Source: Escherichia coli
GTDB taxonomy: Bacteria > Pseudomonadota > Gammaproteobacteria > Enterobacterales > Enterobacteriaceae
Reading direction: 5' to 3' (one strand)
Assembly (NCBI RefSeq): GCF_003018255.1
Contig: NZ_CP027440.1
Length of the DNA: 64,000 bases
The translations under genes were made by a program, and so were the position numbers. Below are positions 17,702 to 24,150 of this stretch, piece by piece. The stretch's first letter is position 1, and every line of letters starts with the position of its first letter. Under the pieces are notes generated by a model. The model had not been told where the DNA came from and ran no database searches. It saw only the letters and a list, made by a program, of their open reading frames with translations.

Positions 17702-19846
17702 TTATTGCAGGTCAGTTGCAGTTGTTTTCCAAAAACTTTCCCCACGCTTGCTCATCTCGACTAAACGCTCGCAAGGGGTAAAACGGGAACCATACTGCGT
17801 GGCCAGTCGTTGCATTATTGCAACCACTTCACCCGCACCGAGAGAATCGATGTAGCGGAACGGACCACCGAGAAATGGCGGAAAACCAATGCCAAATACC
17901 GCGCCAATATCTCCGTCACGCACGCTACGGATAACCTGCTCGTCCAGACAACGTACTGCTTCATTCAGCATCAACATCACACACCGTTCAGCTACCTGCG
18001 GTGCGGAGAGTCGCCCCTGCCCTTGTGTGCCAATGAGCGGGTAAATGGCGGGATCGACCTGTTTTTTGCTTTTACGCCCTTTCTGACCATAAAGATAGAA
18101 ACCCCGGCCATTTTTTCTGCCTTTGCGATCGTCGTTCAAAATTGAAGAAACAACATTTGCAGGCGCGCTAAAACGTTCTCCATAAGCGGCTTCCAGTACA
18201 GGAATAATTTTAGTCCCGGTGTCGATTCCTACCTCATCCAAAAGTTGGATTGGGCCTACCGGAAAACCAAATTTCACCAGCGCGGTATCAATGTGCTCTA
18301 CCCGTTCACCTTCGGTCAACATGCGGATAGCTTCATTAATGTAAGGCGCTAAGATGCGATTGACGTAAAACCCGGCTTTGTCACGCACGACAATTGGCGT
18401 TTTGCCCTGTTTTTTCGCCAGTTTTACTGTGGTGGCGATGGTTTGCGCCGATGTACCGGCATGGGGAATAATTTCTACCAACGGCATTTTTTCCACCGGA
18501 CTGAAGAAATGCAGGCCAATAACTTGCTCAGGTCGCGCGGCGTGAGCGGCGATATCGCCAATCGGTAAAGATGACGTGTTCGAAGCAAAGATGGTATGAG
18601 CGGCGCAATTTTGCTCAACTTCCGCCACCATTTGTTGTTTTAATTCGAGATTTTCAAACACCGCTTCAATAATCAGATCGCGATGGGCAAAGCCGCAATA
18701 GTCCGTCGTTCCGGAGATTAATGCCAGCTGTCTGTCACGTTCGCTGGCTTTGAGATGACGACGGCGAACTTTGCCCTCCAGCTGATCCCAACTGTACTTC
18801 AGCGCATGATTTATGCCCTGCGGGTTGATATCTTTAATTCTGACCGGAAGCCCCGCTTTACAAGCAGTGACATAAGCAATACCGCCGCCCATCAAGCCAC
18901 CACCTAAAATTCCCACGCTGTTTAATGGCGCAGGCGGCGCATCACTGCCAGGATCTTTCTTCACGTCCGTACTGGCAAAAAAGATACTACGCAGCGCCTG
19001 CGATTGCGGCGTCATCACCAGTTCGCCAAAAGCACGGGCTTCAGCGTCATAGCCGCCACTGGTGCCCTGCGCTAATCCCGTTTCGACAACCTCCAGGATG
19101 CGTTCTGTCGCCGGATAGTTACCTTGAGTTTTGTGTTCTGTTTTCTTACCGACCATTTTGAACAGCAGCGCACGACCTAACGGCCCCGCCAGAATACGCT
19201 CGCGTACAGGTAGAGGGCGTGAAGATGGGCGATCCTGCTTTGCCAGCTCAACAGCGGCTTCCAGTAAAATGGATTGCGGAACGACGTCATCCACCAGCCC
19301 CAGCTTTAATGCCTGTTTCGCCCGAAGTTGTTTTCCAGTGAGGATCATCTCCAATGCTGTGCTGACACCTATCAGGCGCGGTAAACGCTGGGTGCCGCCT
19401 GAACCGGGTAATAATCCAAGTTGTACTTCAGGCAAACCGAGCACCGTTTTAGGATCGTCAGTACACATGCGACCGTGGCACGCCAGCGCCAACTCCAGCC
19501 CACCGCCCAGGCAAGCGCCATGAATAGCCGCGATAACCGGAACGGGCAAAGCATGAATCTCCGCCATCAACTGTTGGCCCTGCCGCGCCAGTGCTTCCGC
19601 TTCTTGCGCCGTTTTGCAGTTGGCGATCATGTTGATGTCTGCGCCAGCAATGAAGTTGTCTGGTTTCGCGGAGATAAACACCACGCCGCGCAACTCTTTG
19701 TTTTCACGGAGTTGCTTAATAATGGCGCGCACCTGCGAGGCAAACTCCGCCTTCAGGGTATTCATTTTCTCACCCGGTACGTCGATGGTGATAACAGCAA
19801 TGTTGTCCAGACGGACATTAAGGGTAAACGCTGATGCCATTTCCAT
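17702..19846 (-). CDS. fadJ: Anaerobic fatty-acid oxidation complex alpha subunit (enoyl-CoA hydratase / 3-hydroxyacyl-CoA dehydrogenase)
   Basis: 714 aa ORF, recognised FadJ. Confidence 0.95.
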
Positions 19847-21156
19847 TATTCCGCCTCCACAACCATTGCCGCGCCAAGCCCACCCGCAGCACAGGCGGTC
19901 ACTAAACCAAATCCACCGCCGCGACGGCGAAGTTCATGCAATGTCTGGGTAATCATCCGCGCGCCGGTCGCCGCGAAGGGATGCCCGTAAGCAATCGAAC
20001 CGCCAAGCACGTTAAATTTGCTATCGTCCATTTCGCCAGTGGCATGTGCACGCCCCAGTACATCACGAGCAAAACGTTCGCTACCCAGCAACTGAATATT
20101 CGCCAGTGTCTGAGCTGCAAAGGCTTCGTGCATATCGAGCAATGTCAGATCGCTCATTGTCAAACCGGCACGTTCCAGCGCCAGCGGCGTTGACCAGGCC
20201 GGACCGAGCAACATGTCCTGCCAGACATCTATCGCAGTAAATGCGTAACTGCGCAGATACCCCAGCGGTACCAGCCCTAATTCTTTCGCCCGCGATTCGG
20301 TCATCAGGATCACCGCCGCTGCGCCATCGGTCAGCGGCGTACTGTTTGCTGCCGTTACCGTCCCGTGTTTACGATCAAACGCCGGACGCAACTTTGCGTA
20401 ATCAGCAAGCGAGGAATTACCGCGAATATTGTTGTCTTCGGCAAGCGGTTGTTTATAAGGAGGGATAAAGGCAGTCATCACCTCTTCTTTGAGTTTACCG
20501 TCTGACCACGCCTGAGCGGCTCGCTGATGCGAACGGTGCGCTAATGCATCTTGCTGTTCGCGAGTAATACCGTAGGTTTTCGCCATTTGTTCAGCGGTGT
20601 CGCCCATCCGCAAGCCAGTAGAGTATTCCGCCACTGCCGGAGGCACCGGCATTAAGTCGCGCAAACGCAGGCGAGAGAAGAGTTTCAGGCGCTGGCTCAT
20701 GGTTCGAGCTTTGTTGACATCAACCAGCACGCGCGCCAGTTTTTTACTGACGCCAATTGGCAATACGGAAGAGGAATCGGCCCCACCGGCAATCCCCGCG
20801 CGAATAGTTCCCGCCATCAGGCTTTCTGCGACGTTTGCAATCGCCTGGAAACTGGTAGCGCAAGCGCGGCTGACGCTGTAAGCATCGGTATGCACATTCA
20901 TTCCGGTACCGAGAACAATTTCACGCGCAATGTTGGGGGCTTCAGGCATTTGTACGACCTGACCAAAAACCAGTTGTTCAATCACTTCGGCGGGGATCTC
21001 GCTGCGTGCCAGCAGTTCGCCTACCACCATCTTCCCCAAATCAACAGCAGGAATGCCATGAAAAGCCGTCGCCTGGCGGGCAAAAGGCGTACGTAAACCG
21101 CTAACAATGGCGATACGATCGCCCTGGCGGGTAACCAGCGGTAAAACCTGACCCAT
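19846..21156 (-). CDS. fadI: 3-ketoacyl-CoA thiolase FadI
   Basis: 436 aa ORF, thiolase motifs, stop/start overlap with fadJ. Confidence 0.95.
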
Positions 21157-21183
21157 AACACTCCCCTGTAAAATAATAAATAA

Positions 21184-21199
21184 AGTGGTCTGACCTGAT
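21184..21199. promoter_or_regulatory. FadR-box-like site AGTGGTCTGACCTGAT upstream of fadIJ
   Basis: Sequence matches FadR operator consensus (TGGTCNGACCTG core) about 30 bp upstream of fadI start. Confidence 0.5.
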
Positions 21200-21274
21200 C
21201 ATAGTCTTAACCATTTTTTTACATTTAGCCAAGTGGAGAAAAGGGAAAGTGGGAGCTATGACACAGAGAGAAAA

Positions 21275-21320
21275 GTAGAAGAGAAAAGAAAACGCCCCTG
21301 CCAGCAACTGACAGGGGCGT
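21275..21320 (-). terminator. Putative intrinsic terminator downstream of yfcZ
   Basis: Stem GCCCCTG/CAGGGGC with loop, followed on the minus transcript by a U-rich run. Confidence 0.45.
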
Positions 21321-21336
21321 ATGTACCCGAGAGGAA

Positions 21337-21621
21337 TTAACGCAGACCCAGCTGGAAGATCAGCATTTCAGCTTCGCAGGCAAAAGTGAAATCGATATCC
21401 AGGCGCACACCGTCAGACTCTTCAGTGAAAGTCGGGGTGATTTTGCACGGTTCGGATTCCACGCTACGGGCTTTTTCAGTCAGCGCCGCCAGCGTTTGTT
21501 CTGCTTCTGCGCGGTTTGCAAACACACGGCTGTAAGACGCGGTGCAGTCGGAGTTGTCCATAATGGTGCCAACATCCATACAGCAGCAAACCGGGGTTTC
21601 ATCAGCACTACATTTACTCAT
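21337..21621 (-). CDS. yfcZ: UPF0381 protein YfcZ
   Basis: ORF 21337-21645; start placed at internal Met giving 94 aa MSKCSADETPVCCCMDVG... Confidence 0.85.
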   Translation of the reverse strand: MSKCSADETPVCCCMDVGTIMDNSDCTASYSRVFANRAEAEQTLAALTEKARSVESEPCKITPTFTEESDGVRLDIDFTFACEAEMLIFQLGLR

Positions 21622-21866
21622 CGTTGATTTCCTCTGTATGTGCACCCAAGGTGCCAGATAAACGTTGTGGATATTTTACGCTTCCGGAAAGTGCTGCTCC
21701 AGTTGTTAATTCTGCAAAATCGGATAAGTGACCGAAATCACACTTAAAAATGATCTAAAACAAAATTCACCCGAATCCATGAGTGCGCCACCTCCCAATT
21801 TTGCCAGCTGGATCGCGTTTCTTAGATCATATCTGAAAAAAGATAGAAACATACTTGCAACATTCC

Positions 21867-21883
21867 AGCTGGTCCGACCTATA
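21867..21883. promoter_or_regulatory. FadR operator in fadL promoter (AGCTGGTCCGACCTATA)
   Basis: Strong match to FadR consensus about 110 bp upstream of fadL start. Confidence 0.6.
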
Positions 21884-21891
21884 CTCTCGCC

Positions 21892-21907
21892 ACTGGTCTG
21901 ATTTCTA
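21892..21907. promoter_or_regulatory. Second FadR-like half-degenerate site (ACTGGTCTGATTTCTA) in fadL promoter
   Basis: TGGTCTGA core adjacent to first site. Confidence 0.4.
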
Positions 21908-21992
21908 AGATGTACCTCAGACCCTACACTTCGCGCTCCTGTTACAGCACGTAACATAGTTTGTATAAAAATAAATCATTGAGGTTATGGTC

Positions 21993-23333
21993 ATGAGCCA
22001 GAAAACCCTGTTTACAAAGTCTGCTCTCGCAGTCGCAGTGGCACTTATCTCCACCCAGGCCTGGTCGGCAGGCTTTCAGTTAAACGAATTTTCTTCCTCT
22101 GGCCTGGGCCGGGCTTATTCAGGGGAAGGTGCAATTGCCGATGATGCAGGTAACGTTAGCCGTAACCCCGCATTGATTACCATGTTTGACCGCCCGACAT
22201 TTTCTGCGGGTGCGGTTTATATTGATCCGGATGTAAATATCAGCGGAACGTCTCCGTCTGGTCGTAGCCTGAAAGCCGATAACATCGCGCCTACGGCATG
22301 GGTTCCGAACATGCACTTTGTTGCACCGATTAACGACCAATTTGGTTGGGGGGCTTCAATTACCTCTAACTATGGTCTGGCGACAGAGTTTAACGATACT
22401 TATGCAGGCGGTTCTGTCGGTGGTACCACCGACCTCGAAACCATGAACCTGAACTTAAGCGGTGCATATCGCTTAAATAATGCATGGAGCTTTGGTCTTG
22501 GTTTCAACGCCGTCTACGCTCGCGCGAAAATTGAACGTTTCGCAGGCGATCTGGGGCAACTGGTGGCTGGTCAGATTAGGCAATCTCCTGCTTGGCTGAC
22601 TCCTCAGGGGCAAGCATTAGCAGCTACCGCCAACGGCATCGACAGTAATACCAAAATCGCTCACCTGAACGGTAACCAGTGGGGCTTTGGCTGGAACGCC
22701 GGTATCCTGTATGAACTGGATAAAAACAACCGCTACGCATTGACCTACCGCTCTGAAGTGAAAATTGACTTCAAGGGTAACTACAGCAGCGATCTTAACC
22801 CGGCTTTTAATAACTACGGTTTGCCAATTCCTACCGCGACAGGTGGCGCAACGCAGTCGGGTTATCTGACGCTGAACCTGCCTGAAATGTGGGAAGTGTC
22901 GGGTTATAACCGTGTTGATCCGCAGTGGGCAATTCACTATAGCCTGGCTTACACCAGCTGGAGTCAGTTCCAGCAGCTGAAAGCGACCTCAACGAGTGGC
23001 GACACGCTGTTCCAGAAACATGAAGGCTTTAAAGATGCTTACCGCATCGCGTTGGGAACCACTTATTACTACGATGATAACTGGACCTTCCGTACCGGTA
23101 TCGCCTTTGATGACAGCCCAGTTCCGGCACAGAATCGTTCTATCTCCATTCCGGACCAGGACCGTTTCTGGCTGAGTGCAGGTACGACTTACGCATTTAA
23201 TAAAGATGCTTCAGTCGATGTTGGTGTTTCTTATATGCACGGTCAGAGCGTGAAAATTAACGAAGGCCCATACCAGTTCGAGTCTGAAGGTAAAGCCTGG
23301 CTGTTCGGTACTAACTTTAACTACGCGTTCTGA
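21993..23333 (+). CDS. fadL: Long-chain fatty acid outer membrane transporter FadL
   Basis: ORF 21987-23333; start at [21 protein letters not shown] (signal peptide); C-terminal ...FNYAF. Confidence 0.95.
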
Positions 23334-23394: not shown

Positions 23395-24150
23395 TTATTC
23401 AGAATCGATATCTTTTAAATCATCCTGAATCGCTTGCGCGTTCGGATTTTCCTGCGGTTTGAGTTCGCCGCCATTAGCGATGAAATCATGACGCTGGAAG
23501 TACGCTTCGCGCACCATAATATAAGGATCGGACGACTGACGCAGCAGACCATCGGAATCCAACAACTGCGCACGAGTTTCTATCCCTTCAAGCGTCCATT
23601 TACCCACAGACATCGGCCAGGTCAGCCAGGAAAGAACCGGGTAAAGACCATCCGCCATATCACCACCGTCATCACGCAGCGTGAAGCTACCGTAGAACGG
23701 TAACTGAACGTATGGCCCATAACCCACACCATAATGACCAAGCGTACTACCGAAGCGGTGAGGTTCAGTCCGTTGCAGTTTCGGGTTCGCCATCCCTGCA
23801 ACATCAATAAAGCCGCCCATCCCCAAAATGGTGTTCAGGAAAAAGCGGGTAAAGTGGACCATCCCCTGATAAGGGTCGCCCTGCAAGAAGTAGTTAACCA
23901 TCACCGCAGGTTCTTCAAGGTTGCCAGTAAAGTTGCTCAAACCGTTACGCGCCGGTTGCGGAACATAATCACGCCAGGCGACAGCGACCGGTCGAACAAT
24001 ATACGGGTCTAATACATTGAAATTGAAGTTGTACATGGTGCGGTTGAACCCTTCTAGCGGGTCAGAACGCCCTTGCTGATCTGTACCGGAACTCGCACAC
24101 CCCACCAGAAGCGTAGTTCCCAGAGCAAGCGCCGACAGGCGAAGCTTCAT
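23395..24150 (-). CDS. mlaA: Outer-membrane lipoprotein MlaA (VacJ), phospholipid asymmetry maintenance
   Basis: 251 aa ORF with lipobox (LLVGC), recognised sequence. Confidence 0.93.
   Translation of the reverse strand: MKLRLSALALGTTLLVGCASSGTDQQGRSDPLEGFNRTMYNFNFNVLDPYIVRPVAVAWRDYVPQPARNGLSNFTGNLEEPAVMVNYFLQGDPYQGMVHFTRFFLNTILGMGGFIDVAGMANPKLQRTEPHRFGSTLGHYGVGYGPYVQLPFYGSFTLRDDGGDMADGLYPVLSWLTWPMSVGKWTLEGIETRAQLLDSDGLLRQSSDPYIMVREAYFQRHDFIANGGELKPQENPNAQAIQDDLKDIDSE

Follow-up and report, generated by a model that had tools for sequence, protein, structure and literature searches.

The stretch analysed here (64,000 nucleotides, hereafter the window) is E. coli chromosome with fadJ and fadI on the minus strand, yfcZ also on the minus strand, and fadL on the plus strand, in that order. 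The open reading frame and annotation agree on fadI (19846–21156, minus strand), which encodes a 3-ketoacyl-CoA thiolase, is the first gene of the fadIJ operon and stands under a box at 21183–21199 (below), and annotation places fadJ at 17702–19846 (minus strand). The open reading frame and annotation likewise agree on fadL (21993–23333, plus strand), which encodes the outer-membrane long-chain fatty-acid channel and stands under two further boxes, here called box 1 and box 2. The regulated promoters of fadIJ and fadL are separated by yfcZ (21337–21621, minus strand), annotated as a DUF406 gene (Pfam DUF406, E = 1.3e-36) and followed by its own terminator at 21292–21320 (minus strand), and mlaA is annotated at 23395–24150 (minus strand). 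The names fadI, yfcZ and fadL, which the original prediction had assigned to these genes, are those of the annotation.

A 1.2-kb query around the boxes was matched in 5425 of 5426 complete E. coli genomes, and fadR, which lies outside the window, is present in 5422 of the same 5426. Comparison of the window with K-12 MG1655 over positions 21100–22000 gave 11 scattered differences (for example at 21833 and 21797, which flank the boxes), none of which is inside any FadR box. The boxes are identical to those of K-12, and the K-12 literature is therefore directly applicable to them.

Transcription start sites were taken from genome-wide data (Kim et al. 2012, supplementary file 2) and converted to window coordinates. 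The fadL +1 is the A at 21892 (K-12 position 2459227; 248 reads), and the fadI +1 is the A at 21196 (K-12 position 2458531; only 3 reads), which gives a 5' UTR of 40 nt; yfcZ starts at 21666 (15 reads), and there is a minor divergent start at 21832 (10 reads). The hexamers read from the sequence give a fadL core promoter at 21855–21892 (plus strand), with a -35 element TTGCAA (21855–21860), a 19-bp spacer and a -10 element TATACT (21880–21885), both hexamers being conserved. The fadIJ core promoter read in the same way (21196–21232, minus strand) has a -35 element TTGGCT (21232..21227), an 18-bp spacer and a -10 element AAGACT (21208..21203), and conservation of TTGGCT and TAAGAC(T) extends over 72 species. 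A generic sigma-70 consensus scan missed both of these real promoters, owing to their weak hexamers and to spacers of 19 and 18 bp, and it returned two plus-strand hits that have no start-site support.

The fadL start can be cross-checked, since the two CRP sites discussed by Feng & Cronan (2012) both fit a +1 at 21892. These authors found CRP-cAMP bound at a fadL site centred 157 bp upstream and rejected a CRP site 57 bp downstream. In the window AGTGAccgaaaTCACA at 21727–21742 has its centre at 21734.5, which is 157.5 bp upstream of +1; it is the only palindrome at that distance and is invariant in nearly all 81 species. The rejected downstream site is TGTTACagcacGTAACA at 21940–21956 (centre 21948). 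The text of the paper that is cited for a CRP site at fadIJ does not mention fadI. The ArcA-P site at fadL lies 5 bp from FadR site 1 (Feng & Cronan 2012) and would therefore end near 21861, over the -35 element. On the fadI side, a conserved block, ATGTAAAAAAATGGTTAAG (21225..21207, fadI strand), looks like ArcA direct repeats with 11-bp spacing and may be a candidate for such a site.

Three boxes and the FadR motif

With the start sites at 21892 and 21196 (the latter from 3 reads), the three boxes fall at -25 to -9 and -1 to +16 of fadL and at -3 to +14 of fadI, that is, on -10 elements and start points. The fadIJ box is AAGTGGTCTGACCTGAT on the plus strand (21183–21199; it serves the minus-strand promoter) and reads ATCAGGTCAGACCACTT in the fadI sense; a 16-nt part of it, AGTGGTCTGACCTGAT, occupies 21184–21199 on the plus strand. 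It has a perfect GGTC-T-GACC core, and each of its outer arms has a single deviation (GTGGTC and CAGGTC). Site 1 of fadL (box 1) is AGCTGGTCCGACCTATA at 21867–21883 (plus strand), the final four bases of which are the first four of the -10 hexamer TATACT. Site 2 of fadL (box 2) is CACTGGTCTGATTTCTA at 21891–21907 (plus strand), with a perfect left half-site CTGGTC and a degenerate right half. The fadI promoter also contains ATGGTTAAGACT, which was considered as a further, weaker FadR box and rejected; its half-sites are one base too far apart and it gives no score.

The FadR consensus given in a 2022 review is aaCTGGTCnGACC(T/A)Gtt, and we scored the 12 specified bases of its core, CTGGTCnGACC(T/A)G, on both strands of the 64 kb. 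In the fadI box, as in fadL box 1, 11 of the 12 core bases match, and no other site on either strand of the window has one mismatch or fewer; dinucleotide shuffles contain 0.22 such sites per window on average, and 2% of the shuffles contain two or more. The sites upstream of fadI and fadL that were originally claimed to match the FadR consensus are thus present as stated, on the plus strand and with one mismatch each to the core. The weaker neighbour claimed at fadL is box 2; it has three core mismatches, and its binding by FadR is published (below).

Five published FadR sites outside this locus (fadBA, fadD1, fadD2, fabA and fadE) were also used to make a symmetric weight matrix. The fadI box scores 18.5 bits and ranks first in the window, a score that 1% of shuffles attain, and the fabB box, which was left out of training and serves as an in-window positive control, ranks second. 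Box 1 of fadL scores 11.5 bits and ranks third; 1.7 such sites are expected by chance, so it is not significant window-wide by score alone. Box 2 scores 5.9 bits and ranks 32nd, with 38 such sites expected, which is chance level. Judged by score, then, only the fadI site stands out clearly; box 1 is a borderline case and box 2 would go unnoticed. The original prediction had proposed a matrix scan as the check on its reading and a low score as the outcome that would speak against it: that outcome was found for box 2 alone, which is nonetheless bound experimentally, while the scan bore out the fadI box and left box 1 at the margin. The membership of box 2 in the set rests on its position, on its conservation and fixed 24-bp spacing and on published EMSA, not on its score.

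Among known FadR sites, the fadBA operator ATCTGGTACGACCAGAT, which is published as an EMSA probe for FadR and was one of our matrix training sites, is like the present boxes in being a 17-bp pseudo-palindrome with TGGT/ACCA arms in a repressor position. Unlike it, the fadI box deviates once in each outer arm and fadL box 2 retains one good half-site. The fadBA operator is presumably the reference high-affinity site that was used for the FadR-DNA crystal structure. The activator sites of fabA and fabB (CTGATCGGACTTGTT) belong to the same protein and the same motif family and differ in placement: they lie upstream of the -35 element, near -40, and activate, whereas the boxes of fadI and fadL are repressor sites placed over the -10 and +1. 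The fabB FadR box is itself in the window, at 2403–2419.

Conservation of the boxes

A scan with YfcZ collected 80 loci, which represent about 20 Enterobacteriaceae genera, and the order fadL / yfcZ / fadI is kept in 78 of the 78 loci that reach fadI, the other two stopping short of it. Our alignments covered about 80 Enterobacteriaceae species and comprised 72 distinct spacers on the fadI side and 81 on the fadL side. No 17-mer of the fadI-yfcZ spacer is better conserved than the fadI box (rank 1 of 164), which has 98% identity to the window against 65% in the remainder of the spacer. In 67 of 69 species the fadI -35 element and the centre of the box are 41 nt apart, while the distance from the box to the ATG drifts between 32 and 42 nt through an indel-rich A/T stretch; because the first distance is fixed and the second is not, the box is tied to transcription initiation rather than to translation.

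Variation in fadL box 1 across the 81 species is essentially confined to positions 1, 2 and 9, the last of which is the consensus-free central base (A in most genera and C in E. coli), and 77 of the 81 spacers show no other change in CTGGTC-n-GACCTATA. In box 2 the string CACTGGTCTGATTTCT is nearly invariant in the 81 species. The centres of the two boxes are 24 bp apart in all 79 of 79 species; the sequence between them changes and its length does not. Conservation alone is nevertheless not specific to the fadL boxes, because the entire yfcZ-fadL spacer is highly conserved (box 1 ranks 74th and box 2 31st among 355 windows). Within the species, the 62-bp module that holds the two fadL boxes is 100% identical in 4781 of 5425 E. 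coli genomes, and the corresponding identity of the fadI promoter is uninformative because the window has a flanking polymorphism at 21174. Published comparative genomics gives fadIJ and fadL as the operons that are kept in the FadR regulon even in Shewanellaceae and Vibrionales.

FadR binding and other readings of the boxes

FadR gel-shift probes for fadL were published by Zhang et al. 2014 (Table 2) as fadL-FadR1-F, GCAACATTCCAGCTGGTCCGACCTATACTCTCGCC, and fadL-FadR2-F, CTCTCGCCACTGGTCTGATTTCTAAGATGTACCTC. Probes fadL-FadR1 and fadL-FadR2 correspond exactly to window positions 21857–21891 and 21884–21918 and contain box 1 and box 2, respectively. In the EMSA experiments of Feng & Cronan (2012) both fadL sites bound FadR with equal affinity, binding was essentially complete at 50 nM, and FadR was lost from both sites at 25–50 uM oleoyl-CoA. 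Comparison with footprinted FadR sites, the other check originally suggested, gives the same picture for fadL, as the sites agree with earlier DNase I footprints according to Feng & Cronan (2012), who also described FadR repression of fadL in vivo as modest; a fadL-lacZ fusion is reported to be up about 2-fold in a fadR mutant. The 2022 review states that FadR directly represses fadIJ and fadL from sites that overlap the start sites, that long-chain fatty acids induce fadIJ in a FadR-dependent manner, and that the fadIJ site is credited to Campbell et al. 2003. The exact string of the fadI box is absent from the searchable literature, where no direct binding data for that box were located, and we infer direct FadR binding to it second-hand, via the review.

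FadR is one of several regulators that recognise this kind of palindrome, and the boxes might mainly be operators of other members of the FadR subfamily of GntR regulators, LldR at fadL and PdhR at fadI, with FadR secondary. PdhR, LldR and GlcC are paralogous to FadR, and their operators (AATTGGTnnnACCAATT type) have the TGGT-N3-ACCA architecture in common with the present boxes. An LldR genomic SELEX study found a peak in the yfcZ/fadL spacer, the LldR boxes that its authors named there, AgcTGGTCcGACCtaTa (11 of 14) and cAcTGGTCtGAtttcTa (9 of 14), are the fadL boxes, and changes in fadL and yfcZ mRNA were reported. For PdhR, a SELEX study located a peak at fadI/yfcZ, where the gel shift was smeared, and by our own count the fadI box matches the consensus of that study, AATTGGTnnnACCAATT, at 10 of 14 positions against 7 of 14 for the intragenic site that its authors named. 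Against this, the boxes fit the FadR consensus better than that of LldR or PdhR (their outer arms are closer to CTGGTC...GACCTG than to the AATTGG...CCAATT of the PdhR/LldR/GlcC type), FadR binding and its release by acyl-CoA are known for exactly these fadL probes, fatty-acid induction of fadIJ and fadL through FadR is established, and the resolution of SELEX-chip is coarse. We consider a primary role for LldR or PdhR very unlikely. Their cross-binding, if physiologically relevant, would add to FadR control, not replace FadR.

It is harder still to credit that the boxes resemble FadR sites by chance and owe their conservation to core promoter elements only (the -10, the start site and the initial transcribed sequence). 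Box 1 does include part of a -10 hexamer, box 2 and the fadI box cover start sites, so that their bases are constrained in any case, neither fadL box is significant by matrix score alone, and much of both spacers is conserved. However, the two core matches with at most one mismatch, against an expectation of 0.22, both lie exactly on fad promoters; the CTGGTC/GACC arms of the palindrome are conserved while box 1 varies at its central base; nothing in a promoter element calls for a palindrome; and the published EMSA experiments used these exact sequences in the case of fadL. We give this explanation almost no weight. A third reading places the palindromes in the mRNA, where they would form hairpins at the 5' ends of the fadI and fadL transcripts and affect stability or translation. 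It has in its favour that box 2 (+1 to +16) and the fadI box (+1 to +14) are transcribed, and is excluded for practical purposes because GGTC-N-GACC has a one-base loop and cannot make a hairpin and because folding of the fadL 5' UTR does not surpass that of shuffles (z = -0.59); box 1, moreover, lies outside the transcript of the fadL promoter. An Rfam scan of 20500–22500 gave only sub-threshold chance matches (Spot 42, with 20 bits where the gathering threshold is 80, and aceE-II, with 16 where it is 100).

FadR control of fadIJ and fadL

We conclude with high confidence that the three boxes at the E. coli fadIJ and fadL promoters are native operators for FadR, the regulator of the GntR family that responds to acyl-CoA. 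Boxes 1 and 2 do not differ from the K-12 fadL operators, sites 1 and 2, in sequence or in position relative to +1. These sites we take to be the OL1 and OL2 of DiRusso et al. 1993. The fadI box likewise is identical in sequence to the K-12 FadR site of fadIJ (yfcYX) and lies across the start site, in agreement with the review, with no difference between the two. The finding is thus one of known K-12 operators under ordinary textbook regulation, with nothing new in it. The original prediction had called the sites expected rather than novel, and the identity of the boxes to the K-12 sequence and the listing of both fadIJ and fadL as direct targets of FadR repression in the 2022 review support that judgement.

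FadR is a winged-helix dimer that long-chain acyl-CoA prevents from binding DNA, and the arrangement of the boxes suggests the following course of events. When long-chain fatty acids are absent, one FadR dimer would sit on each 17-bp pseudo-palindrome: at fadL, a first dimer would cover the spacer and -10 hexamer (-25 to -9) and a second the start site (-1 to +16), and at fadIJ the one strong box (-3 to +14) would be occupied. FadR bound in these positions would exclude RNA polymerase or block open-complex formation, probably by steric occlusion. Fatty acid entering by FadL would be converted by FadD to acyl-CoA, which would bind FadR and take it off the DNA, and both promoters would then fire if CRP-cAMP is present and ArcA-P absent. 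Such a circuit would give feed-forward induction of uptake (fadL) together with degradation (fadIJ).

The position of box 1 raises a further possibility, that FadR bound there both represses fadL and activates the minor divergent start at 21832, which reads into yfcZ. The centre of box 1 (21875) is at -43 of this start, and divergent activation was considered because -43 resembles the activating position of FadR at fabA and fabB. The promoter of this start has a poorly conserved -10 element, TATCTT (21845..21840), the start itself is represented by 10 reads, and our search for expression data linking yfcZ to FadR found none. We regard dual action of box 1 as improbable; if it did occur, yfcZ (DUF406) would be an unrecognised and oppositely regulated member of the FadR regulon.

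The value of the FadR assignment is partly one of calibration, as three real operators were correctly recognised from raw sequence. A simple matrix scan would recover the fadI and fabB sites, rank fadL site 1 marginally and miss site 2; weak half-site operators of this kind require positional and comparative evidence. FadIJ is a second beta-oxidation complex, and the significance of the sites goes little beyond annotation: they belong to the circuit that switches on FadL uptake and FadIJ beta-oxidation only when long-chain acyl-CoA is present.

Conserved elements of the yfcZ-fadL spacer

The order fadL, yfcZ, fadIJ is common to all of the approximately 80 Enterobacteriaceae species in which the locus reaches fadI (loci L003-L082), and across these loci the yfcZ-fadL spacer (21622-21992 in the window) has a near-constant length of about 371 bp. 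Its median identity to the window is 77%, compared with 66% for the fadI-yfcZ spacer. Two blocks within it are near-invariant, ACTTAAAAATGATCTAAAACAAAAT at 21742-21770 and TTGCCAGCTGGATCGCGTTTCTTAGATCAT at 21801-21830; together they hold three GATC sites, and the second contains a sigma-70-like match with no supporting start site. Genomic SELEX papers report that RpoN holoenzyme and NtrC, as well as a minor sigma holoenzyme, bind the yfcZ/fadL spacer, with K-12 position 2458968 (about 21633 in the window) among the positions given, and that fadL and yfcZ mRNAs are both reduced under nitrogen limitation.

The fadL 5' UTR carries an inverted repeat, TGTTAC-N5-GTAACA, at 21940-21956 (+49 to +65), which is not bound by CRP (Feng & Cronan 2012). 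Among the 81 species aligned, the commonest variants do not differ in either arm, whereas the N5 centre is free to vary. The motifs GTTACA, GTAACA and TTTGTA are phased here at about 10 bp, an arrangement that appears similar to tandem OmpR half-sites.

yfcZ promoters and CRP sites

The main yfcZ start site is at 21666 and has a conserved -10 element, TAAAAT, at 21678-21673. A minor divergent start directed towards yfcZ lies at 21832 on the minus strand (10 reads); its -10 element, TATCTT at 21845-21840, is poorly conserved across genera. Read as its reverse complement, fadL FadR box 1 forms the -51 to -35 region of this minor start, with the box centre at -43. The CRP site at 21727-21742 shows almost no variation. 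As assigned to fadL it lies at -157.5, which is unusually distant. The yfcZ start at 21666 is nearer, only 68.5 bp from the site, which is upstream of it, a spacing whose helical phase differs from the classical -61.5 and -71.5 positions; its target could be yfcZ in place of fadL, or both genes.

A CRP site reported for fadIJ was looked for in the paper cited for it and was not located there. It may correspond to the purine-rich stretch GGAGAAAAGGGAAAGTGGGAGCTATGAC at 21236-21262, upstream of the fadI -35 element, within which the sub-blocks GCTCCCAC (fadI strand) are conserved.

Further FadR-like sites in the window

The fourth FadR box of the window, TTGGCTGATCGGACTTGTTCG, is on the minus strand at 2401-2421 (17-mer at 2403-2419), 67-83 nt upstream of the fabB ATG (2336). 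It is the known fabB site, of the activator type, and the matrix scan of the window placed it second despite its exclusion from training. The palindrome GCGTACAAGTGTACGC, which we take to be the FabR site, comes directly next in the sequence after this box. Within the fadL coding region, CTGGTCAGATTAG at 22567-22579 is similar to fadL box 2, CTGGTCTGATTTC. It departs from the FadR core at two positions, and its score of 10.1 bits (rank 5 in the window) is consistent with chance.

Other regulators at the FadR boxes

The PdhR genomic SELEX paper gives the fadI target as cAgcGGTaaaACCtgac, which is at 21136-21152, within fadI codons, and matches the PdhR consensus of those authors, AATTGGTnnnACCAATT, at 7 of 14 positions. 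The fadI FadR box (21183-21199), 40 bp away, matches it at 10 of 14, and by this comparison would be the likelier target underlying the PdhR peak. At fadL, the LldR boxes listed in the LldR genomic SELEX paper, which describes activation of fadL and yfcZ by LldR, are exactly the two FadR boxes (21867-21907), and this identity suggests that regulators of the FadR subfamily share or compete for operators there.
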